A stretch of DNA of 54,004 nucleotides from an uncultured Gammaproteobacteria bacterium (GCA_913009875.1 CAJVYS010000005.1:1-54004); one strand, 5' to 3'; positions 3 to 53,016 are shown, numbered from the stretch's first letter. Notes: generated by a model from the letters alone, not told the origin. Translations and numbers: made by a program.

Positions 3-956
3 GTGTGCTTTTCCGATCTTGATTTAGATGGAATAGTTGTTAAACGCTACGATGGTGTGACAGGAGAATTTGGGAAATTCGACGATGAAGATGCTGCGTA
101 CATTCGTTACGGAAGTGGAGGTCTCGCTGGTATTGGAGGATTAGTTTTTGGTCCTGATGGCAATATCTATGTTAGCGACCCCCTCAACAACACTATCAAC
201 CGTTATCAGGGGCCGTTTGGGAATACGCCGGGCGCTTTCATTGATAGTTTTGTTACTTCGGGTAGTGGTGGGTTAAATTTTCCGACAAAACTAACATTTG
301 GACCGAATGGTAATCTTTACGTCGTAGGTGGAGGCAGCAAGGTGTTGAGCTTTCATGGACCACTTGCCGTTGACGCGGGAGCCTTTATAGGTGAATTTGT
401 TCGATCAGGCAGTGGCGGCTTGATTAGGCCTAGGGATTTGGCCTTCGGGTCGGATAATAACCTTTATATTGCAAGTGCAACGGATAATATTTTACGCTAT
501 CAAGGACCTTTGGGATCCAATCCGGGATTTTTTATCGACGAATTTATTTCTTCTTTACGCAATGGTGGTTTGAGTTCTCCGCAGGGGATGGCTTTTGGTC
601 CACAAGGAGATCTTTATGTAAGTGCTAATATTGTTGGTGGTTCTCATAAAGGTGGTATTATGCGTTATGATGGTCAGACCGGAACTTCTAAAGGTACGTT
701 TGCATTTGTCAGTTCGCCCCGAGCCTTAATTTTTTCTTCCATACCAAAACCGGTATTGGTAGGTGATTTAAATAATGACGAGTGTGTGGATCGAACAGAT
801 TTAAACGTTATCTTTGCCGAGATCCGAAGCTCGTCCGGTGAGTACAATGTCGCTTTTGATTTCAATGTGGATGGAAAGGTAAACGTTGCAGATGCTCGTA
901 AACTTGTGACATTGTTTAATAATTCAAGAGGAGCGGCCTGTGGTGCGCCGGCCTAG
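3..956 (+). CDS. NHL/beta-propeller repeat protein with C-terminal dockerin-like (double EF-hand) domain; probably 5'-truncated by the window edge
   Basis: Repeated (F)VxSGSGGL..P..L.FGP.GNLYV blades; C-terminal GDLNNDECVDRTDL...DFNVDGKVNVADA pair; ORF open at window start; AT-richer than neighbouring genes. Confidence 0.7.
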   Translation: MCFSDLDLDGIVVKRYDGVTGEFGKFDDEDAAYIRYGSGGLAGIGGLVFGPDGNIYVSDPLNNTINRYQGPFGNTPGAFIDSFVTSGSGGLNFPTKLTFGPNGNLYVVGGGSKVLSFHGPLAVDAGAFIGEFVRSGSGGLIRPRDLAFGSDNNLYIASATDNILRYQGPLGSNPGFFIDEFISSLRNGGLSSPQGMAFGPQGDLYVSANIVGGSHKGGIMRYDGQTGTSKGTFAFVSSPRALIFSSIPKPVLVGDLNNDECVDRTDLNVIFAEIRSSSGEYNVAFDFNVDGKVNVADARKLVTLFNNSRGAACGAPA

Positions 957-1071: not shown

Positions 1072-2451
1072 TCAAATAAAATTAATATGCTCCGGTGGAT
1101 TACGGATGTCCCACAGAAACTTGTTGACGTAATCCTGCCGGCAGCCGATGGCGCAGTCCTTGTGTACGTCCACCGATTCGGCGATGTCCCTGTGCACATT
1201 CCAGTAATGGTCGCTGTTGACCAGATCGAAAAATGAACCATCGTGCAGGTCGCCCATGTAGAAGCGTTCCTTGTTGAAGAAGGGGCCGCAGGGGTAAATC
1301 TTGCCGTTGCCGGAGATCTGCAGCAGGAAGGGTGTGCCCAGGCAGACGTCGTACTTGCGGTAGCCGTTGCGGTAAAGCTCCGTTTCCTCGCTGGCGCGGA
1401 TCTTGTTCCACTTGGCCTGCACCACATAATCCTCTGTCGACAGGCCTTCTGCCTGTTTCAGCACGTCTTCGATGCTGGCGTAATCCTTGTAGTCGATGCC
1501 GATTTCCTTGTACTCGGAATCGGAGCAGTGCTTGATGACGAAATAGTCCACGCCCAGCTCCGCACCCAGCTCCGCCTCAGCCAGAACCTGATCGTAGCAT
1601 TCAGGGATCAGCACCATTTGCAGGCCGATGGTGCAGTCGTAGTTATGTTCTTTTTTGATGGCCACCAGGCTGCGAATTTTTTCCACCAGAAGATCGAAGT
1701 TTTTGCCCTTGGACTGGTGTACCCGTTGAAACCCCTCGGGTGTGCCGGCGGAGAGATTGAAGCGAATCCACGACATATTGGCCAGCAGGTCGTGGGCACG
1801 ATCCATGTCCAGCAGCAGGCCGTTGGTGGCCATGGCGGTGTCGATGCCCTGTTGCCCTGCCAGCACGGTGGCGTCGTAGAGCACCGGGTTCAGGGTCGGC
1901 TCGCCATCGCCGATGAAGCCCAGCGAGCGCACGCCGAGGCGCCCGCAGTCTTCGATGTAACGCAGCAGGGCATCGCGCTCGATCATGCTGCCCTTGGTCA
2001 TGTTTTGCACCACGGCGTAACAGTAAATACAGGCCGTGTTGCAGAACTTGGTCAGCCCCATGTCGATGTGCACGGGGGCGAAGCGCTCACCGTTCTGCCA
2101 GGCCATCACGCGGTCGAGATGGTGCAGCATTTTGTGGCCGTCGAAGCGAAAGCGCTCGCTGTGGTTGCGGTAGCTGGGGCCGGTGAACTGGTTGGGCACG
2201 CTGGCCGGTTGCGCCGTTTCCAGGCGCACCAGGCCGATCTGCCCCTTGGCGTGCACCAGCTCGACCTTCTGGCCCTGCAGGGTGTGCACCGAGGCGCTCT
2301 GTGTGTTGCCGGATTTCAGTTCGCTGCGGTCGACGATATCGTTGGAGGTGCGCAGCTTGTGGCCAGGGCGCTGGGCGCGTGGTGCGTCGTCGGGCAGGTC
2401 GGTCTGTACGGTATTACCGAAGCGGTTTTTCTGTGACTGGTTGTCAGGCAT
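1072..2451 (-). CDS. Radical SAM protein with SPASM/twitch-like C-terminal domain (paralog A)
   Basis: CNTACIYC (CxxxCxxC), GDGEPTL motif, C-terminal C..C (GKIYPC) and CAIGC cysteines. Confidence 0.85.
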   Translation of the reverse strand: MPDNQSQKNRFGNTVQTDLPDDAPRAQRPGHKLRTSNDIVDRSELKSGNTQSASVHTLQGQKVELVHAKGQIGLVRLETAQPASVPNQFTGPSYRNHSERFRFDGHKMLHHLDRVMAWQNGERFAPVHIDMGLTKFCNTACIYCYAVVQNMTKGSMIERDALLRYIEDCGRLGVRSLGFIGDGEPTLNPVLYDATVLAGQQGIDTAMATNGLLLDMDRAHDLLANMSWIRFNLSAGTPEGFQRVHQSKGKNFDLLVEKIRSLVAIKKEHNYDCTIGLQMVLIPECYDQVLAEAELGAELGVDYFVIKHCSDSEYKEIGIDYKDYASIEDVLKQAEGLSTEDYVVQAKWNKIRASEETELYRNGYRKYDVCLGTPFLLQISGNGKIYPCGPFFNKERFYMGDLHDGSFFDLVNSDHYWNVHRDIAESVDVHKDCAIGCRQDYVNKFLWDIRNPPEHINFI

Positions 2452-2478
2452 GGTGTTTCCTTGCGGTTCGTTCCGGCC

Positions 2479-3588
2479 TCAGAAGGGGCCGCGAAAATCG
2501 GGGTTGGGAATATCCGTCGGCGTGTCCGGCTGTAGCTTGTCCAGTTCCTGCCGCTGGGCCTCGCCGATGCGAACGCCACACACCTGTAGCGCCTGCTCGG
2601 CGATGGTGGCGGCGGTTGGATAATAATGTCCGGCCCAGGCATGGGAGGTGGGGCAGGGCAGGTCGGGCAGGGTGACGCTGGCGGGCGCGGCGCGCAGGTG
2701 GTCGAAGCCTTGGCGGGTGACGCGGGCGATGAGTTCGGCGGCGACGCCAAAGCTCTGGTGTCCTGTGTCCGCCACCAGCAGGCGCCCGGTCTTGGCCACC
2801 GAGCGCAGCACCGCGGGCACATCCAGCGGGCTGACGCTGCGCATGTCGATGACTTCGGCCTCGATGCCCAGCCGGGCGAGGCCGCGTGCGGCGCTCAGGG
2901 CTTCGAGGGTCATGTAGGAAAAGGCGGCGATGGTGATGTCGCTGCCTTCGCGGCATCGCCGCGCCTTGCCCAGTGGTGTCTCGAAATAGCCGGTAGGGAC
3001 TTTGCCGCGCAGCGGATGTATCCAGCGGTGCTCGATGAAGATCACCGGGTCGTCGTCGGCGACGGCGGCGCACAGCATGCCCTTGGCGTCGTCGGGGAAC
3101 ACTGGCATCACCACTTTCAACCCCGGAATATGGGCGAACAGGCTCTGCAGGCTTTGCGCGTGCTGTGGCCCCTGGCCCCAGCCACGACCGACGATGCAGC
3201 GCACCACCAGCGGTACCCGGGCCTGGCCGCCGAACATGTAACGCCATTTGGCGGCATTGTTGATCAGTTGGTCCATGGCCAGCAGGGCGAAGTCGATGCG
3301 CTGATGCACCATGATCGGCCGCAGGCCGCTGATGGCGGCGCCGATGCAGATGCCGGTGAGGGCGTTTTCCGCCAGCGGCATGTCCAGCACGCGTTGCGGG
3401 CCGAAGCGCTGGCGCAGGCCGCTGGTGGTGCCGAAGATGCCCTTGGGGTCGGGCACGCCCTCGCCGATCAGCAGGGTCGTCGGGTCGCGTTGCAGGCACA
3501 GGACCAGGGCATCGTTGATGGCCTCGATGCCGGTTTTCTCGTGCACGGCGGGCGACGGAGAGATATCGGCTAATGGATTACTGGCCAT
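2479..3588 (-). CDS. TPP-dependent dehydrogenase E1 beta / transketolase C-terminal-like subunit
   Basis: LIGEGV...FGPQRVLDMPLAEN, GWGQGPQHAQ, DPVIFIEHR, EVIDMRSVSPLD motifs of E1 beta. Confidence 0.9.
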   Translation of the reverse strand: MASNPLADISPSPAVHEKTGIEAINDALVLCLQRDPTTLLIGEGVPDPKGIFGTTSGLRQRFGPQRVLDMPLAENALTGICIGAAISGLRPIMVHQRIDFALLAMDQLINNAAKWRYMFGGQARVPLVVRCIVGRGWGQGPQHAQSLQSLFAHIPGLKVVMPVFPDDAKGMLCAAVADDDPVIFIEHRWIHPLRGKVPTGYFETPLGKARRCREGSDITIAAFSYMTLEALSAARGLARLGIEAEVIDMRSVSPLDVPAVLRSVAKTGRLLVADTGHQSFGVAAELIARVTRQGFDHLRAAPASVTLPDLPCPTSHAWAGHYYPTAATIAEQALQVCGVRIGEAQRQELDKLQPDTPTDIPNPDFRGPF

Positions 3589-4540
3589 GGAGGTGTCTAT
3601 ACATGTCTTCCACGCGGGGCAGTGGGGCGCGCTGGGCGCTATCGAAGGCGCAGTCTATTTCGTGTTGGATGGCGTTTTCGATGTGCTGCCTGCCGATGTC
3701 GTCGAGCAGCCCGAGCGCGCGCAGGCGTGCGGCCTCCTGTTCGATGGGGCAGCGGGCCAGCCAGTCGGCCTGTGCCTCGGGCGCGCGATAACCCAGGTGG
3801 TCATCGATATCCGGGCCACAGTGCTCACGCCAGCGCCAGGTGTGCAATTCCAGAAACTGCGGGCCGTCGCCGGCGCGGGTGCGGTGTACGGCCTCGTCGG
3901 CCGCGGTGCGCACGGTGTGTAGACGATTGCCGTCCAGCTCCTGCACGTGCAGGCCATGGGCGCTGGCGATGGCGTGGATCGGTCGACCGGGCTGTCTTTC
4001 TTCTAACGGTGTGTAGACGGCATAGTGGTTGTTTTCACACACGAACAGGATTGGCAGCCGGTGCAGGGCGGCAAAGTTCATCGACTCGTGCATCACGCCT
4101 TGCTCGAAGCAGCCGTCACCGAAGAACAGGCAGACCACACGGCCCTCGCCACGCAGCTGGCTGGCCCAGGCGGCACCCACCGCCACTGGCACGGTGCCGC
4201 CGACGATGGCCGTGGAGCCCATGAAACCGGCGTCGGTGTCGATCAGGTGCATGGAGCCGCCGCGCCCTTTGCTACAGCCGCTGGCGCGGCCATAGAGTTC
4301 GGCGATCATGGCAGTGAGATCACCCCCCTTGGCCAGATAGTGGCCATGGGCGCGATGGCCGCTGAATACGCGGTCGTCTTCCGCCAGGGCGGAGACGACG
4401 CCCACCGCGGCGGCCTCCTGACCGATGCACAGGTGCATGGGGCAGCGCATTTCCTGCTCGGCGTAGCGCTCGGCCAGTGCCTCCTCGACGCGGCGAATGC
4501 GCAGCATCTGGCGGAACAGTTCATCCATGGCGTTGCTCAT
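3578..4540 (-). CDS. TPP-dependent dehydrogenase E1 alpha-like subunit
   Basis: HLCIGQEA, GRGGSMH, GDG...ENNHY TPP-binding motif; start set at ATG 4540, overlapping the upstream stop (ATGA). Confidence 0.9.
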   Translation of the reverse strand: MSNAMDELFRQMLRIRRVEEALAERYAEQEMRCPMHLCIGQEAAAVGVVSALAEDDRVFSGHRAHGHYLAKGGDLTAMIAELYGRASGCSKGRGGSMHLIDTDAGFMGSTAIVGGTVPVAVGAAWASQLRGEGRVVCLFFGDGCFEQGVMHESMNFAALHRLPILFVCENNHYAVYTPLEERQPGRPIHAIASAHGLHVQELDGNRLHTVRTAADEAVHRTRAGDGPQFLELHTWRWREHCGPDIDDHLGYRAPEAQADWLARCPIEQEAARLRALGLLDDIGRQHIENAIQHEIDCAFDSAQRAPLPRVEDMYRHLHGQ

Positions 4541-6108
4541 TTCAGCAGGGTGGTGAGATATTTCTGGAACTGCACCGGGTCCACCGGCTCGCGGTTGCAC
4601 ACGGTCTGCACGTTCATGGCCCCGGCGATGCTGCCGAAGAAGGCGGCGATGTCCGCCGGGATGCCCGCAGACAGGCACAGTCCGGCCAGGGAGAGAAAGG
4701 CGTCGCCGGCGCCGATGCGATCAACCACCCGTCCCGATAGCGCGGGGATGGCGTGGCTGGCGTCGATGGCGCGCTCCTGCATCAGCACGCCACGGGTGCC
4801 GCGGGTGACGGCGAGATGCGCGGCGCCCAGGCGGCCGGCGATGTCGCGGGCGATGCTCTCGATATCGCCCTGGCGGTTGCCGGCGGCCATGCGCAGCTCG
4901 GGTTCGTTGAGGGAGACGAAGTCGGCGCGCGGGTAGCGGGTGATGACGTGATAGCCACGGTTGCCGCTGTTGACCTGGGTGTTGACGGCGAGAAAGCGTG
5001 CGCCGCCGGCGAGGCTGTCGACCATGCCCTCGGTAATGAAACCGTTGCCGAAATCGGGCACGATGACGGCGTCGAAGCGTTCGAGGTGACTGTCCAGCCA
5101 GTGGCGTATGTCATGCTCTATTTGTAGTGAGGTCAGGGCCTCGCCGCCGAAATAGACCTCAAACAGTTTGCCGGCATCGTCGCCGATGTAGCGGCGTTTG
5201 ACCAGGGTGTGAGCACGGTCATTGGTGAAGAAGCGTGGCTGGACATTGTCACGCAGGTGTTCGCGGATGAAGTCTTCGTGCGATGCCTGGCCGCCGAGGC
5301 CGCCCAGCAGGGTGACCTTGCGGGCAAAGCCGGCGATGTGATTGGCCACGGCGATGGCGCCGCCGGCGAAGCGCTCCTGGCTTTCGTATTGCACCGCCAG
5401 TACGTTGCCCTTGCCGGTCTGACCCAGCGGGCGGGTGTAGTGATATTCGTCGATGATGATGTCGCCGAGCACCAGTACTTCGAGACCGGCCAGGCGGTCG
5501 AGGCACAGTTTCAGGCTTTCACCGTCGTGGCGTTGGCGAAAGCCGCGCAGGAAGTCGCGCACCTCGTCGTCGAGGGCGCTGAAGTGTTCGTTGAGCAGGT
5601 TGCTGGAGCTGAAGGTGGCCTCCTGGGTGAAGTGGATGCGGCCACCCACACTTTCCACGGCGGCCTGCTCGCGGCGGATATTTCCCGTTACGTCGTCCTG
5701 TGTGCGGATGTAGTCGCTGCCCTTGACGTAGACGTGGGGACGCAGCGCCTCGATGACATCGATGGCGGTCTCGGCGGCATTGATGGCCACGCCGTCCACG
5801 CAGTCCAGGGCGGCGATGCTCTCGCCACGCAGGGTTTCGGTGAACACGGGGCGGTCCGGACCCTTGTTGACAAAGGCGTCGGCGGTCAGCGTCACCAGCA
5901 GCCGGTCGCCGAGCTTGCGCGCCGCCTGCAGGTGCTTGATGTGGCCGATGTGCATGAGATCATAGGTGCCGTGGCAGAGCACGACGCGTTCGCCACGGCG
6001 GCGGCAGTCGGCGGCGAAGGCCGTCAGCGCCGGCAGGCTCATGAGCTTGCCCGGCGGATTTTCCGCGGCTTCCTGCGGGTTGAGTTTGACCACGCTTCCC
6101 TTAGCCAT
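4537..6108 (-). CDS. Bifunctional cytidylyl/adenylyltransferase (N-terminal) and PfkB sugar kinase (C-terminal); HldE-like with reversed domain order
   Basis: N-terminal HGTYDLMHIGH (HIGH) and YVKGSDY; C-terminal VLGDIIIDEY and DRIGAGD PfkB signature. Confidence 0.85.
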   Translation of the reverse strand: MAKGSVVKLNPQEAAENPPGKLMSLPALTAFAADCRRRGERVVLCHGTYDLMHIGHIKHLQAARKLGDRLLVTLTADAFVNKGPDRPVFTETLRGESIAALDCVDGVAINAAETAIDVIEALRPHVYVKGSDYIRTQDDVTGNIRREQAAVESVGGRIHFTQEATFSSSNLLNEHFSALDDEVRDFLRGFRQRHDGESLKLCLDRLAGLEVLVLGDIIIDEYHYTRPLGQTGKGNVLAVQYESQERFAGGAIAVANHIAGFARKVTLLGGLGGQASHEDFIREHLRDNVQPRFFTNDRAHTLVKRRYIGDDAGKLFEVYFGGEALTSLQIEHDIRHWLDSHLERFDAVIVPDFGNGFITEGMVDSLAGGARFLAVNTQVNSGNRGYHVITRYPRADFVSLNEPELRMAAGNRQGDIESIARDIAGRLGAAHLAVTRGTRGVLMQERAIDASHAIPALSGRVVDRIGAGDAFLSLAGLCLSAGIPADIAAFFGSIAGAMNVQTVCNREPVDPVQFQKYLTTLLK

Positions 6109-6697
6109 TGTCTTCGTCGCTCCAGTCCAGGCCCAGCAGATCGGCGACGTAATGCAGCAGGAACAGGTGGCCGATTTCCACCATGCCGTAGTCGTCGGAG
6201 TCTAACCAGTAGTTGATGTCTCCCAGCTGACGTAACGGATTGTCGGCGCGGAAGCCGGAGAGAGTGACCACTTTTGCCGCGCAGGCGGTGGCGCTGCGGC
6301 AGGCGTTGATGATGTTTTTTGACTGCCCCGAGCTGCTGATGGCGATGAGTACGTCGTTGGCCGTGAGCAGGCGTTCGACACGGCGGGAGAAGGCGTTTTC
6401 GTAGCCGTAGTCGTTGCTGAAGCAGGTGAGGGTGGATGAATCGTGCAGGGTCATGGCGCGCAGGCCGCCGACGTTGAAGAAGTCGGTGACGGCGTGGCTG
6501 GCGACGGCGGCGCTGCCGCCATTGCCGATGATGTACAGGCCGCCGCCCCGGGCGCGGGTGTCGGCCAGCAGGCGGGTCAGCTGTTTGATACCCTGATCGC
6601 GCGCAAGTTCTTGCGTGGTTTTTTCGCTGAATGTGCCAGCGCTGACGACGCTGGAAAATTCCCGGGCGTGGGTGGTGAAGGCGGTCCGTGTCAGCAT
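6101..6697 (-). CDS. SIS-domain phosphosugar isomerase, GmhA-like
   Basis: IGNGGSAAVASH, NDYGYENAFSR, IAISSSGQSKNI motifs; start moved to ATG 6697, right after the epimerase stop. Confidence 0.85.
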   Translation of the reverse strand: MLTRTAFTTHAREFSSVVSAGTFSEKTTQELARDQGIKQLTRLLADTRARGGGLYIIGNGGSAAVASHAVTDFFNVGGLRAMTLHDSSTLTCFSNDYGYENAFSRRVERLLTANDVLIAISSSGQSKNIINACRSATACAAKVVTLSGFRADNPLRQLGDINYWLDSDDYGMVEIGHLFLLHYVADLLGLDWSDEDNG

Positions 6698-6698
6698 G

Positions 6699-7688
6699 TC
6701 AGTGGTCTCCGAGATATTTGAACCAGCTGCGGGTGGCTTCATGGATGGAGCCGGCATCCCACAGCGGCGCCTCGCGCCACAGTTCGATGGATTCGAGCAT
6801 GCGGGAGACACCGGTGGCGAAGTCCACCTTGGCCTTCCAGCCCAGTTGTGTGTGAATACGGTGGATGTCGGCGAAGGTGCAGTCGGGTTCGCCGGGGCGT
6901 TTGGGGATGTATTCCACCGCGCCGCCGAGGTGGCCGACCAGCTCGTTGATGCTGTAGTGGTGGCCGCTGCCGACGTTGAAGATCTCGCCGCTGATGTCGC
7001 TGGCGGCGGCGCAGGCAAAGGCGTCGGCGACGTCGCTGACGTAGGTGAAGTCGCGGCTCTGAGTGCCGTCGCCGACCACCGTGTAGGGTTTTCCCGCCAG
7101 TTTCTGGGCGAGGAACACGCCGAACACTGCACCGTAGGCCCCGGTGGTGCGCGAGCGCGGGCCGTAGACGTTGAACAGGCGCAGGGAGAGGGTGGGCAGG
7201 CCGTAGACCTGCGCCCAGTGCAGCACCATTTCCTCGCCCAGGTATTTGGTCAGGGCGTAGGGATACTGGGGACGGATCTCGGCGCTCTCCGGCGTTGGGT
7301 AGACATCGGGGATGCCATAGCAGGAAGAGGAAGCGGCATAAACCAGCCGCTTGATGTTTGCCGCCCTGCCGCATTCCAGCACGTTGAAGGTGCCTTGCAC
7401 ATTGGTGGCGTAATAGATGTCGGGGTGTTCGATGGAGGGCACGATGTCGGCCTTGCCGGCCAGGTGGAATACCCAGTCCACGTCGTCGAAATGGGGGTGG
7501 ATGGCCGCCTTGTCGGTGATGTCGGCCTCGACCTGCTGCAAGCCCGGGGCGCCCTTTACCGGCGCCAGGTTTTCCCAGCGGCCGCTGGAGAGATCGTCCA
7601 GCGCGATGACCTGATGGCCATCGCGGATCAGTCGTTCGACCAAGTGGCTGCCGATGAATCCCGCGCCGCCGGTGACCAGTGCCTTCAT
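6699..7688 (-). CDS. NAD-dependent nucleotide-sugar epimerase/dehydratase (extended SDR)
   Basis: VTGGAGFIGSH, YALTK (YxxxK), RLFNVYGP, GDGTQSRDFTYV. Confidence 0.92.
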   Translation of the reverse strand: MKALVTGGAGFIGSHLVERLIRDGHQVIALDDLSSGRWENLAPVKGAPGLQQVEADITDKAAIHPHFDDVDWVFHLAGKADIVPSIEHPDIYYATNVQGTFNVLECGRAANIKRLVYAASSSCYGIPDVYPTPESAEIRPQYPYALTKYLGEEMVLHWAQVYGLPTLSLRLFNVYGPRSRTTGAYGAVFGVFLAQKLAGKPYTVVGDGTQSRDFTYVSDVADAFACAAASDISGEIFNVGSGHHYSINELVGHLGGAVEYIPKRPGEPDCTFADIHRIHTQLGWKAKVDFATGVSRMLESIELWREAPLWDAGSIHEATRSWFKYLGDH

Positions 7689-7740
7689 GGGTTGTTCTCC
7701 GTGGATATTCTACTGATGCAGCAAACAAACGCCTTGCTCC

Positions 7741-7757
7741 TGCACAAACCTTGCCGC
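7741..7757 (-). promoter_or_regulatory. Candidate sigma-54 (-24/-12) promoter of the epimerase operon
   Basis: Minus strand CGGCAAGGTTTGTGCA, GG-N10-GC, about 50 bp upstream of ATG 7688. Confidence 0.5.
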
Positions 7758-7790
7758 TGAAAATAAAATGTACCCAGGATGTATGCGTCG

Positions 7791-8714
7791 TTATGCCGGT
7801 TTAATGACAATATTTTCTCCTGCATGCATTGGAATTCTATCGATAACGATTAAGCCATTTTCACAGATGAACTGGTCATAGTCTGCTCTATTCGGGGCGA
7901 GCACTTCCAGCATTACAGATGTATGGTGTTCACGCAGTTTGTCGATGGCGGGCTGAAGGACTTCCTTTTCCATTCCTTCAATATCCATCTTGACAAAGCG
8001 AGTGGTTTCATTCAGTAATTGGCTTAAGGTAACTGATGGGACTTTAATACCCAAAGAATCCTCACTGCGGCGCGTGCTGGATACACTATTACGAAATTGC
8101 AGACTAATAGGGTCCTCACTAGCGGAAACCGCAAATCCCAGCTTTGACATATCCACATTATCGACTTTATTGATTGCCATATTTGCTTTCAGTATTTCTA
8201 CTCCCCTTGGTTCGGGCTCAAATACGACAACCTGTACATCAGGGCGGTGTTTAGCAATAAACACCGCGTGATTACCCACGTTGGAGCCGATGTCAAGAAA
8301 CGTACTGTTGGGGGGGATATGCTCTTTTAAATAAGCGATTTCGTTTGGTTCGTAAAAACGCCCATTTATCCACTCATATTCTATTTCCCAGTTTTGTCCT
8401 GTAATGGGTAATAAAAAATCAATACCCGCATCATTGATCATAGCCGCATCACCGCCATGATGTATGAAGTTAAGCACGGCAAGGAATTTGTTGGCTGGCT
8501 CAAAGGCTTGGCCAGAAAGTAGTTCGTTAAGAACATTCCTGGCTTCATCTAGATTTCCCTTTGAGGCCAGAATCCCTGCGGCCTCGAAAAGAAACATTGG
8601 GTTTTTTGCATGCCTATAACCTTCACGCAGCAGATTTTCTGCTTCGTGAAACTGTCCTTGGCGCTCCAGGAACAGGGCAGCAGGAAACACTTTATCCAGA
8701 CTTATTTCGACCAT
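7791..8714 (-). CDS. FkbM-family methyltransferase with N-terminal TPR-like helical region
   Basis: FLDIGSNVGNH, VFEPEP, VKMDIEGME motifs; markedly AT-richer than flanking genes. Confidence 0.8.
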   Translation of the reverse strand: MVEISLDKVFPAALFLERQGQFHEAENLLREGYRHAKNPMFLFEAAGILASKGNLDEARNVLNELLSGQAFEPANKFLAVLNFIHHGGDAAMINDAGIDFLLPITGQNWEIEYEWINGRFYEPNEIAYLKEHIPPNSTFLDIGSNVGNHAVFIAKHRPDVQVVVFEPEPRGVEILKANMAINKVDNVDMSKLGFAVSASEDPISLQFRNSVSSTRRSEDSLGIKVPSVTLSQLLNETTRFVKMDIEGMEKEVLQPAIDKLREHHTSVMLEVLAPNRADYDQFICENGLIVIDRIPMHAGENIVIKPA

Positions 8715-8810
8715 GAGTTAACTCCTTTATAACGCGTTATTGTGACTGTTGTTGTCACTAAATCAATTTTTGGAAAATATGGATGTTGTATTCTTGGTTA
8801 ATAGTTGGCT

Positions 8811-9968
8811 CTAAATAAAATTTACATGCGTAATGCCGTCCGACCCCAGCGCGTGCAGGTAGCGGTTGATGTCGTCCATGCGGCAATTGGTGCGGCAGTC
8901 GCGGATGTCCAGCTGTTTTCGCACATAACTGAAATTCGCTTTTCTTTCTTCGCCCTGCCAGATGTCCTCGAAGCTTTGCTGATTGAGGTTGCCGTAGTTG
9001 AAGCGCCGGTCGGTGAGATAGGCGCTGCAACCGTACACGGAGCCGTCCGCCATCACGTAGGCCCAGAAGAAGGGCGTGGCGCTGCAGCGGGGATAGCGCT
9101 GTTCCCGCTGCTCGCCGAGCTTGCGCATGGTGTTGCTGCGGAATATCACGCTGAAACCGTCGCGGTTTTCCGCCGCCAGTTCGGCGGCCAGCTGGTCCAT
9201 GTCGTCGTAGGTAATGCCTTCGTAGACATGGGTATTACTGAACAGGTGTTGGGAGTAGGGTTTCACCACCAGGTAGTCGAGGCCGATGTGGTCGCGGCAG
9301 AGGCGCGCCAGCTCGACCATTTCGTGGCGATTCTCCGGCAGCAGCAGGGATTGCGCCCCCAGGGTGCAGCGATGACCGTGCTGCTCGCGCTGTTCGACCA
9401 GGCGTTGCAGGTTGGCGACCACGCGCGGGAAATCCTCGGCATCGGTGCGGTGGATGTCGGCGTAGGTGGTCGCGCGGCCGGCGTTCACCGAGGCCTTGAT
9501 CCAGGACAGGTGCGGCAGGCCGCGATCGAGAAATTTGTCGGAGACCACCGTGGCGTTGCTGGTGATGGCGGTGTCGATGCCACTCTCGGCGCAGACCTCG
9601 ATCATCTCCGGCAGCTGCTTGTGCAGCAGGGGCTCACCCTCGCCGGCGAACATGATGCTCTTCACCCCCAGCTCGCCCATTTCCCGCAGCCGTGGCGTGA
9701 TGCGCTGCAGATCCAGGCGCTGGGCCTGATAACCGATGTAGTCCACTGCGCAGAAGGTGCAGCGGTGATTGCAGGCACCGACGGGGGAGAGCTCCACATA
9801 CAGGGGATAGACACTGCGGGCCTTTTGCCAATCGTCGCCCACGTCCAACCACTGGGTAACTCGCCGGGGGTGGTAGATCAGCTTGTGGCCGTCGATGGCG
9901 AAGCGGTCCGTGCCTGGTGTTGCGGGCCGGGCGGGCTTTTCAAATTGGACGAGGGTTGACGATTTCAT
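8811..9968 (-). CDS. Radical SAM protein with SPASM/twitch-like domain (paralog B)
   Basis: CNHRCTFC, GEGEPLLH, GSVYGC and CRTNC motifs. Confidence 0.87.
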   Translation of the reverse strand: MKSSTLVQFEKPARPATPGTDRFAIDGHKLIYHPRRVTQWLDVGDDWQKARSVYPLYVELSPVGACNHRCTFCAVDYIGYQAQRLDLQRITPRLREMGELGVKSIMFAGEGEPLLHKQLPEMIEVCAESGIDTAITSNATVVSDKFLDRGLPHLSWIKASVNAGRATTYADIHRTDAEDFPRVVANLQRLVEQREQHGHRCTLGAQSLLLPENRHEMVELARLCRDHIGLDYLVVKPYSQHLFSNTHVYEGITYDDMDQLAAELAAENRDGFSVIFRSNTMRKLGEQREQRYPRCSATPFFWAYVMADGSVYGCSAYLTDRRFNYGNLNQQSFEDIWQGEERKANFSYVRKQLDIRDCRTNCRMDDINRYLHALGSDGITHVNFI

Positions 9969-10007
9969 GGCGCTGCTTCGATCTGCTGGGTGGTTTGGGT
10001 GGGAATT

Positions 10008-10024
10008 AGCAGATTGTGTGCCAG
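10008..10024 (-). promoter_or_regulatory. Sigma-54 (-24/-12) promoter candidate for the radical SAM/sugar cluster
   Basis: Minus strand CTGGCACACAATCTGCT, near-consensus TGGCAC-N5-(T)TGC, 40 bp upstream of ATG 9968. Confidence 0.7.
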
Positions 10025-10090: not shown

Positions 10091-10654
10091 ATGTCTCAAT
10101 CATCGTGTGATACCGACGTCCCCACCGGGGTCCATTTTCAGGCCGAGCTGCCCATCGCCTGGGAGCCGCTGCCGGGGCCGCCCTCGGAGGTTGAACGGCT
10201 GAGTGAAAGCCAGGCCAACGAGGAATTGCTGGGCAATCTGCTGGTTCTCGATGAGGCCGTCACCGAGCCGGAGGAGGACGCGCAGCAGGAACACTGGCGG
10301 CGGGTGGAGGCCAAGCTCGACCTGATGCTGAGCCTGCTCGGCGAGATGCTGGCCGGGCAGCGTGGGTTGCCGGTGGCCCGCCCGGTGTGCCTCGGCGGTG
10401 AGGTGTTGTGTATCGACGGCATCAGTGACCAACCCCTGCCGGCGGCGGGTGAATGGCTGCGGGTGCAGCTGTACCTGGTGCCGAGCATCCCGCGCCCGCT
10501 GATGGTGGATGCCGAGGTACTGCCGACCGAGGCGCCGAACCGGCTGTTGCTGCGCCTGACGGGCCTGCCGGAAACCACCCGCGACCTGCTCGAACGCTTC
10601 GTCTTTCGCCAGCATCGGCGTGCAATTGCACAGGCCAGGAGCCACGCCTCTTAA
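10091..10654 (+). CDS. PilZ-domain protein (flagellar-locus type)
   Basis: RVEAKLDLML helix, C-terminal LLERFVFRQHRRAIA typical of PilZ proteins next to fleQ; genomic context. Confidence 0.7.
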   Translation: MSQSSCDTDVPTGVHFQAELPIAWEPLPGPPSEVERLSESQANEELLGNLLVLDEAVTEPEEDAQQEHWRRVEAKLDLMLSLLGEMLAGQRGLPVARPVCLGGEVLCIDGISDQPLPAAGEWLRVQLYLVPSIPRPLMVDAEVLPTEAPNRLLLRLTGLPETTRDLLERFVFRQHRRAIAQARSHAS

Positions 10655-10930: not shown

Positions 10931-11015
10931 TAGTGGGCCTGGGAAAACTGACGAAGGCCGAGTGCACCGTCAGGACTATCTTGATGGAGTATCAGACCGG
11001 TACACGGAGAAAAAA

Positions 11016-12443
11016 ATGCCCGATTCCATGACCATTCTGCTGGTGGAAGACGACAAGCAGCAGCGCAACAAACTTGCTGCGATACTCGAATTCGTTGCCC
11101 AGGAGCCGATCACCATCATCGACTACCAGGCGGCCAGCGATAAGCTGGACGACGGGGTTGAGGCCATTATTCTGGGTGGTTGCAGCTCCGCAGAGGCACG
11201 CAAGGTAACCTTTGATGCTCTGCGCAAGGCATCTGAAAACATACCCATCCTGGTGCTGGTGGCGGAAAACGGCGAGCGTGATCTTGACAAGGACATGGTC
11301 AAGCACGCCTTCAGTTTGATCAATCTCCCCATGCGTTACGCCGAGGTCTCCGACGCCCTGCACCGCGCCCAGGTCTATCGCCTGAGTCAGAAGCGCGGTG
11401 GTGGTGGTATGAACCTGGAACTTTTCCGTAGTCTGGTGGGTAATAGCCGCGGTATTCTTGAGGTGCACAAGCTCATCGAGCAGGTGGCGGACACGGGCGC
11501 CACGGTGCTGATTCTGGGTGAGTCCGGTACCGGCAAGGAAGTGGTGGCACGCAACCTGCATTACCATTCCTCCCGCCGCGATAAGCTTTTCGTCCCCATC
11601 AACTGCGGCGCCATTCCCGGCGAGTTGCTGGAAAGCGAACTGTTCGGTCACGAGAAGGGCGCCTTCACCGGCGCCATCAGTGCTCGCCGCGGCCGCTTTG
11701 AAATGGCCGAGGGCGGTACCCTGTTCCTTGATGAAATCGGCGATATGCCCACGACCATGCAGGTCAAGCTGTTGCGGGTATTGCAGGAACGCACCTTCGA
11801 GCGTATCGGCGGTAACAAGGTGCTGACCGCGGATGTGCGTATCGTCGCCGCCACCCATCGCAATCTTGATGAGCTGATCAGCACGGGTAATTTCCGCGAA
11901 GACCTGTATTACCGCTTGAATGTCTTCCCCATCGACATGCCACCCCTGCGTGAGCGAATCGATGATGTGCCCTTGCTGGTGAATGAACTGATCGCACGTA
12001 TGGAAAACGAAAAACGTGGCTCGGTGCGCTTTACGCCGGCTGCCCTGATTGCCCTGTGTCAGTACCGCTGGCCGGGTAATGTGCGCGAGCTGTCCAACTT
12101 GCTCGAACGGCTGGTCATCATGCACCCGTACGGTATTGTCGATGTGGGTGATTTACCGGTCAAGTTCCGTCCTGCTGGCAGTGCCGAAAATCTGCCGCAG
12201 ATCACACTGGATCCACAGTTGACACCGGTGATGCCCATGCAGCCCTCCCGGCTGCCACGTGAGGGGCTGGATCTCAAGGAGCATATTTCCACCGTCGAGT
12301 GCTCGCTGATCAAGCAGGCGCTGGATGAGGCAGGTGGCGTGGTGGCCCATGCCGCCAAGCGGTTGAAGATGCGCCGCACCACCCTCGTCGAGAAACTGCG
12401 CAAGTACGGCCTGCAGCGCAGTGAATCCGTGACGGGAATTTGA
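11016..12443 (+). CDS. fleQ: Sigma-54-dependent flagellar master regulator FleQ/FlrA
   Basis: REC-like N-terminus, GESGTGKE, GAFTGA, C-terminal Fis-type HTH (RRTTLVEKLRKY); upstream of fleSR-fliE; start 11016 after GGAG. Confidence 0.9.
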   Translation: MPDSMTILLVEDDKQQRNKLAAILEFVAQEPITIIDYQAASDKLDDGVEAIILGGCSSAEARKVTFDALRKASENIPILVLVAENGERDLDKDMVKHAFSLINLPMRYAEVSDALHRAQVYRLSQKRGGGGMNLELFRSLVGNSRGILEVHKLIEQVADTGATVLILGESGTGKEVVARNLHYHSSRRDKLFVPINCGAIPGELLESELFGHEKGAFTGAISARRGRFEMAEGGTLFLDEIGDMPTTMQVKLLRVLQERTFERIGGNKVLTADVRIVAATHRNLDELISTGNFREDLYYRLNVFPIDMPPLRERIDDVPLLVNELIARMENEKRGSVRFTPAALIALCQYRWPGNVRELSNLLERLVIMHPYGIVDVGDLPVKFRPAGSAENLPQITLDPQLTPVMPMQPSRLPREGLDLKEHISTVECSLIKQALDEAGGVVAHAAKRLKMRRTTLVEKLRKYGLQRSESVTGI

Positions 12444-12496: not shown

Positions 12497-12513
12497 TAGG
12501 CACGCATTTTGCT
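12497..12513 (+). promoter_or_regulatory. Sigma-54 promoter of fleSR
   Basis: TAGGCACGCATTTTGCT, GG-N10-GC with near-perfect consensus, upstream of fleS as in Pseudomonas/Vibrio. Confidence 0.8.
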
Positions 12514-12580: not shown

Positions 12581-13702
12581 GTGACCATGGCCGTACAGCA
12601 GACCCCACAGATTCAGACCCTGGAGCACTCATTTCAGGTCTTCGATCTGGCTTCCCCGCGACGGGAAGCTTCCTATCCGCTACATTCCGTTCGCCTGACA
12701 CCTCCATCCGTTCCGGACAAGGCACAGCACCTGCAAGCCATCTTCAATGCCCTGCCGTCCGGTGTCGTGGTACTGGATGCCTCGGGGCGGGTGCAGGAAT
12801 GCAATCCCGCCGCCATCGAATTGCTCGGTGAACCGCTGACGGGCGAGCAGTGGACCGACATCATCGGTCGTGCCTTTTCTCCTCGCAGTGACGACGGCCA
12901 CGACATCTCGCTGGCCGATGGCCGCCGTGTCAGCATCTCCACCTGCCCGTTGGGCGATGAGCCGGGCCAACTGCTGTTGCTCAACGATGTCACCGAAACC
13001 CGTGAACTGCAGCAGCGTTTGAGCCAGCACCAACGGCTCTCGGCGCTGGGCGAAATGGCCGCCGGCCTCGCCCATCAGGTGCGCACGCCGCTGGCCTCGG
13101 GCCTGTTGTACGCCTCCCAGCTCAAGCGACCCCATCTTGATGTGGAGTCCCGCGCCGAACTGGCTGGCAAGGTGGTCACCCAGCTGCGCCAGCTGGATGC
13201 CCTCACTAACGACATGTTGCTGTTTTCACGCAGTGGCTATGGTGGGGAAGACATCATCGAACTAGACAGCCTGCTTGCCAGCCTGGCCGGCGCAGTGGCG
13301 CCGCACTGCGAGGAACGCAACACCGAATTGCAGATTACCAATGCCTGCGAAGGGGCACGCGTGCAGGGCAATCCACGCACCCTGCTCAGCGCCCTGTTGA
13401 ACCTTACCAACAACGCCATGCAGGCCATGGGGCAGGGTGGTGTGCTGCAGCTGGGGCTGCGTCAGGGCACCTGCAACATGCTGGAAATCACTATTACCGA
13501 CACCGGCCCCGGCATCCCCGCCGAGGTGCGGGAGCATCTCTTCAAACCCTTTTTCACCACCCGTGCCAACGGTACAGGCCTGGGCCTGTCCGTGGTGCAG
13601 GCCGTGGCCCAGGCCAACGGTGGTGGTGTGCGGGTGCATAGCCGGCTGGGCGAGGGCAGCGAATTTATCGTGCAGCTGCCATGCCTGGATGACGGCCAAT
13701 GA
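12581..13702 (+). CDS. fleS: PAS sensor histidine kinase FleS/FlrB
   Basis: PAS domain; LGEMAAGLAHQVRTPL H-box; DTGPGI and GTGLGL boxes. Confidence 0.88.
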   Translation: MTMAVQQTPQIQTLEHSFQVFDLASPRREASYPLHSVRLTPPSVPDKAQHLQAIFNALPSGVVVLDASGRVQECNPAAIELLGEPLTGEQWTDIIGRAFSPRSDDGHDISLADGRRVSISTCPLGDEPGQLLLLNDVTETRELQQRLSQHQRLSALGEMAAGLAHQVRTPLASGLLYASQLKRPHLDVESRAELAGKVVTQLRQLDALTNDMLLFSRSGYGGEDIIELDSLLASLAGAVAPHCEERNTELQITNACEGARVQGNPRTLLSALLNLTNNAMQAMGQGGVLQLGLRQGTCNMLEITITDTGPGIPAEVREHLFKPFFTTRANGTGLGLSVVQAVAQANGGGVRVHSRLGEGSEFIVQLPCLDDGQ

Positions 13703-13739
13703 TCCGTCCGTGGCAACAGACTTCAGTTCAGGAGGTGTT

Positions 13740-15167
13740 ATGAAACAGGCAGTGATTCTGGTCGTGGAAGATGATGCGGAGCTGCGTGGCGCCCTGTGCG
13801 ACACGCTGACCCTGGCGGGCTATGCAGCGGAAACCGCTGACAATGGCTACGCGGCGCTGGATATTCTCGACCGCAAGACGGTGCAGATGGTGATTACCGA
13901 TATCCAGATGCCGCGCATGGATGGCCATACCCTACTAAAACAGATCAAACGGAAATGGCCGCAGTTACCGGTCATGTTGATGACCGCCTTCGGCTCTATT
14001 GAAATGGCGGTCGAGGCCATGCGTGACGGCGCGGTGGATTACCTCACCAAGCCTTTTGAGGCCGAGGTGCTGGCGGCCAATGTGGCGTTGCACGTTGATT
14101 CGCGCGCCGGCGCGGTGATCGGCGCCGACGATGCCGACGACGGCATGGTGGCGGTGGATGCGCGCAGCCGACAACTGGTGGAGCTGTCAAAGCGCGTTGC
14201 TGCCAGTGACGCCACGGTGATGCTCACCGGTGAGAGCGGCGTCGGCAAGGAAGTGCTGGCGCAGTATATCCATCGTCATTCGGCGCGTGCCGATCAGCCC
14301 TTCATCGCCATCAATTGTGCGGCAATCCCCGACAATATGCTTGAGGCCACCCTGTTCGGCTACGAGAAGGGTGCCTTTACCGGCGCCTACAAGGCCTGCC
14401 CCGGCAAGTTTGAACTGGCCCAGGGCGGCACCCTGTTGCTGGATGAAATCTCCGAAATGGATGCCGCCCTGCAGGCCAAGCTGCTGCGCGTGTTGCAGGA
14501 GCGGCAGGTGGAGCGGCTGGGCGGCAACAAGCTCATTGAACTGGATGTGCGTATCCTGGCCACCTCCAACCGCGACATGCGCAAAGAGGTGAAGGCCGGT
14601 CACTTCCGTGAAGACCTGTTCTACCGCCTCAACGTCTTCCCGATTCGCATTCCTGCACTGCGTGAGCGTGCCGACGACATTGTGCCGCTGGCCGAGCGTC
14701 TGTTGCAGAAGCATTTCCGCGTCGTCAGCGGCACGCTTTCTGCTTCTCTTTTGCTGAATAGCCCGGCCAACAGTCCGGCGAAGGCCCCGTTGCTGAGTGC
14801 GACGGCAAAGACACAACTGCAGAGCCATCACTGGCCCGGCAATGTGCGCGAACTGGACAACGTCATCCAGCGTGCGCTGATTCTGTACAACGGTGACTGC
14901 ATTGCCGCCGAGGACATTCAGTACGAACTGGTCGATGAGCTGTCAGCGCTGCCGGATGGTGACGACGACGGCCCCACGTCGCTGGGCGATGAAATGAAGG
15001 GCCATGAATACAGCCGCATCCTGTCGGTGCTCAAGGCCGATCACGGCAACCGCAAGACCGCCGCCGAAAAGCTGGGCATCAGCCAGCGCACCCTGCGCTA
15101 CAAGCTGGCGCGGATGCGTGAAATGGGTATGTCGGTACCGGGCCGCTACGGCGCGGAGATGTCATGA
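13740..15167 (+). CDS. fleR: Sigma-54 response regulator FleR/FlrC
   Basis: REC (VVEDD...TDIQMP), GESGVGKE, GAFTGA, HTH RTLRYKL; GGAGG RBS before ATG 13740. Confidence 0.9.
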   Translation: MKQAVILVVEDDAELRGALCDTLTLAGYAAETADNGYAALDILDRKTVQMVITDIQMPRMDGHTLLKQIKRKWPQLPVMLMTAFGSIEMAVEAMRDGAVDYLTKPFEAEVLAANVALHVDSRAGAVIGADDADDGMVAVDARSRQLVELSKRVAASDATVMLTGESGVGKEVLAQYIHRHSARADQPFIAINCAAIPDNMLEATLFGYEKGAFTGAYKACPGKFELAQGGTLLLDEISEMDAALQAKLLRVLQERQVERLGGNKLIELDVRILATSNRDMRKEVKAGHFREDLFYRLNVFPIRIPALRERADDIVPLAERLLQKHFRVVSGTLSASLLLNSPANSPAKAPLLSATAKTQLQSHHWPGNVRELDNVIQRALILYNGDCIAAEDIQYELVDELSALPDGDDDGPTSLGDEMKGHEYSRILSVLKADHGNRKTAAEKLGISQRTLRYKLARMREMGMSVPGRYGAEMS

Positions 15168-20830: not shown

Positions 20831-21367
20831 ATGCCCAGCAAAATGTGTTTTCGAAGATTACGACTAGCGACCTTTCTGATGATCCTCAGTGGGCCGCTAT
20901 TGGCCCAGGATTGCGATCCCAAGACCTATGCGTCGACCCCCAGTGATCAGTTCCGGGAACATGCCGATGGCACCGTGACCGATACCAAAAGCAAACTGAC
21001 CTGGATGCGTTGTCCCCTGGGTATGCAGTGGCAGGGTGGCAATTGCGTGGGTGTGGCGGCCCAGTATGAATGGGTGGATGCCGGGCGCTTTATCAAACAA
21101 ATGAATGGTAACGATGGATTTGCCGGCCACCGCGACTGGCGCCTGCCGGCCCTGAAAGAACTCGAAGGCATCGTCGAACACCGCTGCATCAGCCCGGCCA
21201 TCAATCTCGAAATATTCCCTGCCACGCCGCCGACCGGTTTCTGGTCAGCCACCCCGGAAAAGGATTATGACAAGGGTGTCTGGCTGATGTACTTCCTGCA
21301 CGGCAAGAGCTACATGGGCAATGCACAGCAGGAGTGGAAAGTGCGTCTGGTGCGCGACGCGCGTTAA
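20831..21367 (+). CDS. Secreted DUF1566 (Lcl C-terminal-like) domain protein
   Basis: Signal peptide; DGTVTD..L.W.RC, DWRLP...EL, VRLVR. Confidence 0.8.
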   Translation: MPSKMCFRRLRLATFLMILSGPLLAQDCDPKTYASTPSDQFREHADGTVTDTKSKLTWMRCPLGMQWQGGNCVGVAAQYEWVDAGRFIKQMNGNDGFAGHRDWRLPALKELEGIVEHRCISPAINLEIFPATPPTGFWSATPEKDYDKGVWLMYFLHGKSYMGNAQQEWKVRLVRDAR

Positions 21368-49391: not shown

Positions 49392-50096
49392 TTAACTGGC
49401 TCCGCCTACTACTATTTTTGTTGGCCGGCCACGCCTGTCCTGCCCCACTTTACACCCCAATTTTTTCTCGACTTTTTCTCGAAAATTATCATTTCCCAAG
49501 GGTGTGCCCGTTTGCCAGGCTGCACGAATCGTCGCCAAGGTCTCTGTATCAACGTGCGCCTTAAACAGGGCAGTGTATGCCGTGGTCCGTGACTTAGCTC
49601 CTCTGCCCAGTGATAGATACAGGGGATGCGGCGTCACCAGGTCATCCACTTGTCCCTTTGCATTATGGCGATAGCTTGACCAACGGTACTGTGCAGGTTG
49701 ACGCACCATGTTCGCCCGCACCGGGTTGAGTTCGATATACTTCATACAGATCAAAAGGTAGTGCTCTTCCTGAACCAGGCTGGCCTTGTAGCGTCCTTCC
49801 CAGATGGAACCGCTGGAGCCATAAGCTTGGTTAATATAAGGCACATAGCGACGTCCCACATATTGCATCATACGGGTAATACCAATGCTGTCAGACGGCG
49901 TGGCGAGTATATGAATATGGTTCGTCATGAGCACATAGGCATGAATATCACAGTGATACCGCCTTGCACCCTCCAGAAGCCAATCACGATAAGCCGCATA
50001 ATCCGAATCCTCAAAGAAGACCGGTTCTCGGCTGTGCCCTCTCTGCACAATGTGCACAGGTACACCAGGGATAATAAAGCGGGGTTTTCTTGGCAT
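49392..50096 (-). CDS. Y1 HUH transposase (IS200-like/RAYT-like), copy 1
   Basis: MPRKPR..PG..HIVQRG, YVLMTNHIHIL (HUH), WEGRY, YIELNPVRA, YRWSS. Confidence 0.88.
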   Translation of the reverse strand: MPRKPRFIIPGVPVHIVQRGHSREPVFFEDSDYAAYRDWLLEGARRYHCDIHAYVLMTNHIHILATPSDSIGITRMMQYVGRRYVPYINQAYGSSGSIWEGRYKASLVQEEHYLLICMKYIELNPVRANMVRQPAQYRWSSYRHNAKGQVDDLVTPHPLYLSLGRGAKSRTTAYTALFKAHVDTETLATIRAAWQTGTPLGNDNFREKVEKKLGCKVGQDRRGRPTKIVVGGAS

Positions 50097-52975: not shown

Positions 52976-53016
52976 AAAAAAAGCTCTTGCTAGTTAAATC
53001 AGCAAGAGCTTTTTTT
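52976..53016. terminator. Bidirectional rho-independent terminator
   Basis: AAAAAAAGCTCTTGCT-loop-AGCAAGAGCTTTTTTT between convergent genes. Confidence 0.8.

Follow-up and report, generated by a model that had tools for sequence, protein, structure and literature searches.

What does a row of eight co-oriented genes, set back-to-back with the flagellar regulators of an uncultured Gammaproteobacteria bacterium, make, and does its product reach the flagellum? The genes span positions 1072-9968 on the minus strand of a 54,004-base stretch of DNA (GCA_913009875.1 CAJVYS010000005.1:1-54004; hereafter the window), which is the entire contig C5 of a 3.56-Mb genome with a GC content of 0.58 in 211 contigs (G000; genomes, contigs and loci are cited below by our own numbers, prefixed G, C and L). 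Open reading frame (ORF) calls, translations and Pfam/NCBIfam profiles identify them, from the upstream end, as the radical S-adenosylmethionine enzyme rSAM-B, an FkbM-family methyltransferase, an extended short-chain dehydrogenase/reductase (SDR), a GmhA-like isomerase, an HldE-like fusion of a nucleotidyltransferase (NTase) and a kinase, the alpha and beta subunits of an E1-type thiamine diphosphate enzyme, and a second radical enzyme, rSAM-A (Table 1), which confirms the gene kinds proposed in an earlier reading of the sequence alone (the sequence-only reading). Its description of five genes as overlapping or nearly abutting is likewise correct by measurement: 1 nt separates the SDR from the GmhA-like gene, the GmhA-like and HldE-like genes overlap by 8 nt, the HldE-like and E1 alpha genes share an ATGA, E1 alpha and E1 beta overlap by 11 nt, and 27 nt lie between E1 beta and rSAM-A. 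We report that seven of these genes, all except the FkbM gene, are a portable cassette that is new here, and we lean slightly towards a model in which the cassette makes an unusual activated sugar that is used in this organism for flagellar glycosylation under sigma-54 control.

The view that the cassette genes form a real sugar-pathway unit is supported by their conservation across bacteria. When rSAM-B was searched against genomes sampled at one per species, 48 loci were recovered, and the window proteins were then scored against these. In the 47 loci where most of the rSAM-B gene is present, the encoded protein is 53-87% identical to that of the window, other phyla included, and the record titles range over Gamma- and Betaproteobacteria, Nitrospira, Sericytochromatia, Syntrophobacteraceae, Planctomycetota and a metagenome-assembled genome (MAG) labelled Chitinophaga. 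Of the 48 loci, 22 unite genes for rSAM-B, SDR, GmhA-like, HldE-like, E1 alpha and E1 beta, mostly in the same order, and 15 of those 22 also contain a third radical SAM gene; rSAM-B stands alone in three, and several of the remaining loci are cut by contig ends. Protein searches return thousands of rSAM-B relatives, which bear the bare annotation 'radical SAM protein' or are mislabelled as MoaA. We found no published account of this gene combination in the full text of open-access papers and preprints, and, as far as searches of the open-access literature show, the cassette genes are part of no described flagellin glycosylation island.

The last gene of the cassette, rSAM-A, is 74-95% identical in close relatives (L005, L007, L009, L010, L012, L013 and L044), and its place is taken in eight distant loci (L016, L017, L020, L021, L023, L028, L030 and L047) by a different radical SAM protein of 379 aa that is 36-40% identical. 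The Herbaspirillum copy of this alternative gene (L020) is 85-88% identical to the seven others, whose titles name Gallionella, Methylobacter, Nitrospira and Nitrosomonadaceae MAGs, and such identity across those titles suggests recent horizontal transfer of this version of the cassette. A small ORF of ~110 aa that matches no family always precedes the alternative gene.

Versions of the cassette are also found on viral DNA. In the ESM Atlas rSAM-B falls into generic 'radical SAM' clusters, one of which is labelled mostly Uroviricota, and a scan of viral contigs (IMG/VR) recovered 11 contigs (L067-L077) that encode rSAM-B at 37-49% identity; on most of these, rSAM-B is accompanied by a second radical SAM gene and one for a thiamine enzyme, and on some by SIS, NTase, kinase and SDR genes. 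Phage hallmark genes are present on three of them: in L067 the cassette lies directly before a portal gene, together with which genes for protease, major head, adaptor and tail proteins come next; in L068 it is surrounded by genes for neck, tail and tape-measure proteins; and in L069 DNA polymerase and primase genes lie beside it. L069 and L072 further encode a GT2 glycosyltransferase, and L072 a HAD phosphatase. The cassette is mobile and is used also by uncultivated phages, in which it could serve host glycan remodelling or virion decoration or, less likely, DNA modification; a search of GenBank phages with rSAM-B gave a single weak match (24% identity), and the cassette is not known from any cultured phage.

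The eighth gene of the window row stands outside this unit. The FkbM gene has a GC content of 0.44, with 0.42 at third codon positions, versus 0.59-0.67 and 0.76-0.84, respectively, for its neighbours, and a search at E<=1e-10 detected no homologue in the 48 related loci; it is a strain-specific, low-GC insertion between rSAM-B and the SDR gene. The latter directly follows rSAM-B in most related loci, as it does in the window once the insert is set aside. Because the methyltransferase belongs to a strain-specific insert, O-methylation does not count among the features of the pathway, and the earlier suggestion that the product might be O-methylated is dropped. The spacer between rSAM-B and the SDR gene holds a long perfect hairpin (REP- or terminator-like) in L004-L010; the window spacer is without it and contains the FkbM gene in its place.

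The middle genes of the cassette resemble enzymes of ADP-heptose synthesis at some distance. The GmhA-like protein has phosphoheptose isomerases as its best PDB matches (E 2e-23), scores 94.4 bits against TIGR00441 (cut-off 209.45) and, aligned with 5ltz/5lu7, keeps two histidines of the set that we take to be the metal and catalytic residues of Burkholderia pseudomallei GmhA (His64, Glu68, Gln175, His183 and Asp61), the other positions reading Glu68 to Asp, Gln175 to Glu and Asp61 to Val. The HldE-like fusion reaches 108 bits with rfaE_dom_II (cut-off 181.5) and 105 bits with rfaE_dom_I (cut-off 345), and its NTase-then-kinase order is the reverse of that of HldE; the SDR finds its best NCBIfam match in GalE (182 bits, cut-off 262). 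Since the same genome also holds a canonical, kinase-first HldE (392 bits, contig C114), a GmhB-like gene (94.5 bits against a cut-off of 149.6, contig C2) and a second GmhA/DiaA-like copy (32% identical, contig C4), the isomerase, kinase and NTase of the cassette are specialised paralogues. The parallel with the ADP-heptose pathway (GmhA, HldE, GmhB and HldD) lies in the combination of a SIS isomerase, a PfkB kinase with a cytidylyltransferase-like NTase and an extended SDR, and in the fact that the isomerase, kinase and NTase of the cassette have heptose enzymes as their best named matches, whereas the reversed domain order, the scores far below cut-off, the lack of GmhB and the separate canonical HldE set the cassette apart.

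By its closest matches, rSAM-B probably acts on nucleotide-type substrates. It contains the CxxxCxxC motif and four further cysteines that are invariant across 23 homologues in a twitch-like pattern; it scores far below every NCBIfam cut-off, including that of the DesII family (TIGR04426, 52.2 bits versus 450), and its best PDB sequence matches are DesII, BlsE and viperin. In its AlphaFold model (mean predicted local distance difference test score 80) the top fold match is again DesII (E 6e-16, template modelling score 0.62), followed by SuiB, SkfB, BlsE, anSME, PqqE and viperin, with MoaA also among the closest. Judged from this model, rSAM-B is fold-related to the radical SAM enzymes of nucleotide-linked sugars and an orthologue of none. 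Although DesII, which works on a TDP-sugar, is its best match in both sequence and fold, identity is only ~20% and the cassette includes no conserved aminotransferase. The adjacent rSAM-B/SDR pair also resembles AprD4/AprD3, a pair of a radical SAM dehydratase and an SDR reductase. rSAM-A is a paralogue of rSAM-B at 26% identity.

The thiamine enzyme lies inside a sugar cluster with its GDG...NN thiamine diphosphate motif intact and with no E2 or E3 partner: in agreement with the sequence-only reading, the 55 window ORFs scanned (16 at E<=1e-3 and 39 at E<=1e-10) gave no match to E2 or E3 families, and none to glycosyltransferase families. E1 alpha reaches 309 bits with TIGR03182 (cut-off 394) and has a 42% identical paralogue on contig C3. 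Most loci fill this slot with an E1 alpha/beta pair; a split transketolase occupies it in L048, split transketolase/DXS-like genes in the viral contigs L068 and L073, short E1-like genes in L067 and L069, and an acetolactate-synthase/YerE-type enzyme (TPP_enzyme_N/M/C) in L072. That three different thiamine enzyme architectures share one slot argues, at the level of gene content, that carboligation would be integral to the pathway and its enzyme interchangeable, and the earlier idea of a two-carbon addition gains from the YerE/acetolactate-synthase-type or transketolase-type enzymes that replace E1 in some versions. YerE attaches a pyruvate-derived two-carbon unit to a CDP-4-keto sugar (PMC9306805). 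The yersiniose system (YerE/YerF) shares with the cassette a thiamine enzyme without E2/E3 within a sugar cluster and the enzyme type found in the L072 slot; it differs in that the keto-sugar of the cassette would be generated by a radical SAM enzyme instead of an E1/E3 deoxygenation system and would be of heptose type.

Gene content, conservation and fold relationships can be fitted together in a pathway whose substrate, order of steps and product we infer as follows. The GmhA-like isomerase and the NTase-kinase fusion would convert a ketose phosphate, most likely sedoheptulose-7-phosphate, into a nucleotide-linked heptose-type sugar, in parallel to the ordinary ADP-heptose enzymes of the cell. 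The DesII-like, twitch-domain rSAM-B and the adjacent SDR would then yield a keto- or deoxy-keto sugar, a step that would parallel DesII and the AprD4/AprD3 pair, and E1 alpha/beta would decarboxylate pyruvate and add the two-carbon unit to the carbonyl in the manner of YerE and of AviB1/AviB2 of avilamycin biosynthesis, a stand-alone E1 pair that we liken to the cassette pair by description only. rSAM-A may carry out a further radical step, for instance an epimerisation, a C-C closure or a methylation, before the product is attached by glycosyltransferases encoded elsewhere. In this lineage the cassette would be transcribed from a sigma-54 promoter beside fleQ/fleR and its product would go to flagellin glycosylation, whereas elsewhere, among bacteria and phages alike, it would supply other surface glycans.

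The predicted promoter is the first link to the flagellum. A -24/-12 motif, TGGCACacaatCTGCT, sits in the 122-bp divergent spacer between rSAM-B and tPilZ, with a single mismatch to TGGCAC-N5-TTGCW, the correct GG/GC spacing and the orientation of rSAM-B. It is kept at -54 to -59 in eight of nine aligned close relatives and was not found in the ninth (L012); in L009, L010 and L011 the upstream gene is another one and the flanks do not align, yet the motif persists as an island of identity. More distant orthologous loci (rSAM-B identity of 67% or less) have no such motif upstream of rSAM-B, so sigma-54 control would be a trait of this clade rather than of the cassette. The sequence-only reading had placed GG-N10-GC motifs before both rSAM-B and the epimerase-type SDR gene; the former withstands comparison, and the latter (CGGCAAGGTTTGTGCA) does not, since it matches at 8 of 11 specified positions and retains its GG-N10-GC in only three of ten relatives (L005, L006 and L010), with the GC lost in L007 and L008 and the motif absent from L004, L009 and L011-L013. 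We therefore rejected it as a promoter. A sigma-54-like site, AGGCACgcattTTGCT, also precedes fleS, as expected for a FleQ-type hierarchy.

Genomic context provides the second link. tPilZ and fleQ adjoin the cassette in L004-L008 and in L010, where tPilZ lies 9 kb away and glycosyltransferase genes stand between. In an Ectothiorhodospiraceae MAG (G002, rSAM-B 67% identical) a single 63-kb contig bears an island that begins with nonulosonic-acid genes and two maf genes, continues with the cassette and four PF13524 glycosyltransferases accompanied by tailoring genes (an aminotransferase, a methyltransferase, a carbamoyltransferase and another radical SAM gene), and ends with flagellin, FlaG, FliD, tPilZ and FleQ. 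A Sericytochromatia MAG (G005) encodes, on one strand, FliS, FliD, FlaG, flagellin, two TPR-GT2 proteins, a Maf-like protein, tailoring enzymes, the cassette and a legionaminic-type cluster. In both genomes the cassette shares its contig with flagellin, at a distance of about 14 kb, and the link to flagellar glycosylation is thereby supported independently from two other lineages. Flagellin glycosylation islands with Maf and pseudaminic or legionaminic acid genes, such as the Pseudomonas-type ones beside fliC, thus do include the cassette in G002 and G005, and the window cassette adjoins the tPilZ-fleQ pair that follows fliC-flaG-fliD in G002; the window differs in having no Maf, glycosyltransferase or flagellin. 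Its arrangement looks like a G002-like island after flagellin and Maf have moved away. Elsewhere in the genome, contig C151 (L065) carries Maf, a LegB/PseB-type dehydratase and an aminotransferase beside flagellin-FlaG, and contig C26 (L066) carries NeuC, NeuB, an acetyltransferase, a CMP-synthetase and PtmE together with a PF13524 transferase and an ISL3 transposase, so that the legionaminic-type gene set is split over the two.

A number of observations weigh against this model. Adjacency to tPilZ/fleQ is limited to the above six of 48 loci, all of them close relatives. The flagellin, Maf and nonulosonic-acid genes of G000 lie on other contigs than the cassette, the 55 window ORFs include no glycosyltransferase of Maf or any other type, and no Maf was found in G003 and G004, two of the five whole genomes checked, whose flagellins are on other contigs. 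Other copies of the cassette keep different company: a Wzt-type ABC transporter gene (L016), a KpsC-like gene (L009), a GT2 pair set among unrelated metabolic genes in a cultured isolate of Herbaspirillum lusitanum (L020), and, in the Chitinophaga-labelled MAG (L018), a NusG-like regulator together with GDP-mannose genes. Regarding regulation, window sites with at most one mismatch to the sigma-54 consensus number 7 versus 3.5 expected, a count reached in 12 of 100 shuffles; because this is not above chance, the case for the rSAM-B motif rests on its placement and conservation, and an activator other than FleQ or FleR could drive the predicted promoter. On the chemical side, the family scan found no GmhB-type phosphatase in the cassette, and since all family scores fall below the curated cut-offs the substrate may not be a heptose. 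Furthermore, five loci with more than 6.8 kb of downstream sequence have rSAM-B, SDR, GmhA-like and HldE-like genes and no E1, which suggests a simpler deoxy- or epi-heptose product in loci without thiamine genes, and three have rSAM-B with E1 alpha/beta and no GmhA/HldE; as loci may lack either part, the pathway steps can occur apart from one another, and the data do not settle in which order they run. We accordingly grade the parts of the model differently: that the locus is a glycan-precursor cassette is held with high confidence, that it serves the flagellum in this organism is about an even call, and the exact chemistry is proposed with low confidence.

The contexts just listed bear most directly on an alternative in which the chemistry is the same and the product goes to lipopolysaccharide (LPS) O-antigen or to capsule, the fleQ adjacency being a leftover of rearrangement with no flagellar role. 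It would account for the loci beside Wzt-type transporter (L048 as well as L016), KpsC-like and GDP-mannose/NusG-like genes, for the genomes with no Maf detected and for a window devoid of glycosyltransferases; the conserved sigma-54 motif facing the flagellar regulators, the cassettes embedded in the flagellin islands of G002 and G005, and the glycosyltransferases between cassette and tPilZ in L010 all speak for the flagellum instead, and we regard the alternative as a serious if unlikely one. The sequence-only reading had named orthologous clusters already characterised as LPS or capsule loci as evidence that would tell against it. Capsule-type contexts do exist and come close to this, and stop short of it because none of those loci has been characterised; the proposed flagellar glycosylation link itself finds support in the islands of G002 and G005, and the cassette as such is not specific to flagella and occurs in polysaccharide-type and phage loci too. 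The glycosyltransferases, sulfotransferase and B12-dependent radical SAM gene flanking L010-L013 have no counterpart in the G000 genome at E<=1e-20. Nonulosonic acids offer a different explanation of the same islands, namely that the cassette makes no separate sugar and serves legionaminic or pseudaminic acid, either by modifying it or by supplying a substituent. NeuB-type clusters are contained in five of the 48 loci as retrieved, with an immediately upstream position in L014, L021 and L031, and NeuB is encoded in all of G000-G005. This explanation leaves the GmhA, kinase and NTase genes without a role, however, and the genome of a Herbaspirillum isolate (G006) contains the full seven-gene cassette with no NeuB match and G007 a marginal NeuB fragment only, so that we consider it very improbable. 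Dependence on nonulosonic acid as a general rule was rejected on the strength of G006.

The order of the chemistry is open to a rival of its own, in which the E1 pair or a transketolase acts first and, by transferring a C2 unit to an aldose phosphate, builds a longer ketose phosphate. Activation by the GmhA-like, kinase and NTase enzymes would come next, and tailoring of the nucleotide sugar by the SDR and the radical SAM enzymes last. Split transketolase/DXS-like enzymes in place of E1 (L048, L068 and L073) would suit such a route, as would an isomerase, kinase and NTase that score far below the heptose cut-offs and might accept a different chain length. It has a precedent in the lincosamide octose pathway (LmbR/LmbN/LmbP/LmbK/LmbO), in which a chain-building enzyme works alongside a GmhA-like isomerase, a kinase and an NTase to activate a higher-carbon sugar; the likeness is one of description only, and that pathway uses a transaldolase and no radical SAM enzymes. 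The acetolactate-synthase/YerE-type enzyme in the L072 slot favours the late carboligation set out above, the five loci that keep rSAM-B, SDR, GmhA and HldE without a thiamine enzyme imply that the activation branch works alone, and a product derived from pyruvate would be a 1-deoxy-ketose, not an expected substrate of a GmhA-type isomerase; we judge the early route unlikely. Finally, the product might not be a surface glycan at all, being instead a secondary metabolite or cofactor or, in phages, serving DNA modification. The DNA polymerase and primase genes of L069 and the presence of the nucleotide-modifying viperin and MoaA among the closest folds could be read in this way, but almost every bacterial context inspected is a glycan locus equipped with glycosyltransferases, the phage versions L069 and L072 encode GT2 enzymes, and no polyketide synthase, nonribosomal peptide synthetase or resistance genes were seen nearby, which makes this the most improbable of the readings considered.

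Returning to late carboligation by the thiamine enzyme, we offer one bolder extension, which is improbable as it stands: the cassette could be the missing route to C9 sugars, caryose-like carbocyclic or 4-C-branched nonoses built from a heptose and a pyruvate-derived two-carbon unit, with a deoxy-keto intermediate made by the first radical SAM enzyme and a C-C bond closed or rearranged by the second. On this reading the route would have spread horizontally across many bacterial phyla, and phages would carry it for the remodelling of surface or flagellar glycans. The relevant passages of a 2022 review (PMC9092360) give the origin of caryose as unknown and list radical SAM enzymes as known or proposed makers of sugar carbocycles, and a passage of PMC4743980 describes the genes for bradyrhizose as unknown. 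Unusual sugars on flagella, LPS and capsules affect motility, phage attachment and immune recognition. The cassette brings together a pair of radical SAM enzymes, a carboligase that depends on thiamine, and activation of the heptose type. The identity of its product would add new carbon-carbon chemistry of sugars and could account for orphan higher-carbon or branched sugars, while the cassette itself might become a marker of a widespread, mobile form of glycan decoration that in this organism appears wired into the sigma-54 flagellar hierarchy.

Table 1. Coordinates of the cassette, the adjoining regulators, the sigma-54-type motifs and other features of the window
Feature	Position	Strand	Description
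rSAM-B	8811-9968	-	Pfam Radical_SAM+SPASM; twitch/SPASM-type auxiliary cluster domain; hub gene of the cassette
TPR + FkbM-family methyltransferase	7791-8714	-	Pfam/NCBIfam FkbM
Epimerase-type extended SDR, GalE/TviC-like	6699-7688	-	Pfam Epimerase, 211 bits; AASSSCYG...YxxxK
GmhA-like sugar-phosphate isomerase, divergent paralogue	6101-6697	-	SIS_2
HldE-like NTase (N-terminal)-PfkB kinase (C-terminal) fusion	4537-6108	-	Cytidylyltransferase-like NTase, residues 45-168; kinase, residues 210-502
E1 alpha-type thiamine diphosphate enzyme subunit	3578-4540	-	Pfam E1_dh, 208 bits; GDG...NN motif in translation
E1 beta-type subunit	2479-3588	-	Transket_pyr + Transketolase_C
rSAM-A, second radical SAM/SPASM enzyme	1072-2451	-	N-terminal extension of ~100 aa relative to rSAM-B
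TGGCACacaatCTGCT	10008-10023	-	Sigma-54-type -24/-12 motif, 55 nt before the rSAM-B ATG
CGGCAAGGTTTGTGCA	7742-7757 (derived from offset)	-	Second GG-N10-GC motif, before the SDR gene
AGGCACgcattTTGCT	12498-12513	+	Sigma-54-like site, precedes fleS
tPilZ (atypical PilZ)	10091-10654	+	Pfam tPilZ, 60 bits; divergent from rSAM-B; opens the flagellar regulator block
fleQ	10962-12443	+	Sigma-54 activator
fleS	12581-13702	+	Sensor kinase
fleR	13437-15167 (ORF)	+	Sigma-54 activator
Lcl_C-domain protein	20831-21367	+	Follows fliI
GGDEF-EAL protein	22313-25213	-	Follows the Lcl_C-domain protein
NHL-repeat/dockerin protein, partial	3-956	+	GC 0.44
Low-GC contig end	48000-54004		GC 0.47-0.53
IS200-like Y1 transposase	49392-50096
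IS200-like Y1 transposase	53015-53887

The plus-strand block that stands back-to-back with the cassette continues after tPilZ with fleQ, fleS, fleR and fliE-F-G-H-I. The fleS ORF overlaps the longest fleR ORF by 266 nt, and for this reason the true fleR start is probably further downstream than position 13437. The flagellar block ends at fliI, where the Lcl_C-domain gene and the GGDEF-EAL gene follow, and neither fliJ nor later flagellar genes were found on contig C5. On the other side of the cassette, the partial gene for an NHL-repeat/dockerin protein beyond rSAM-A has a counterpart in L010, where a 749-aa version, 95% identical, is likewise a neighbour of rSAM-A. The two IS200-like transposase genes lie within the low-GC end of the contig.

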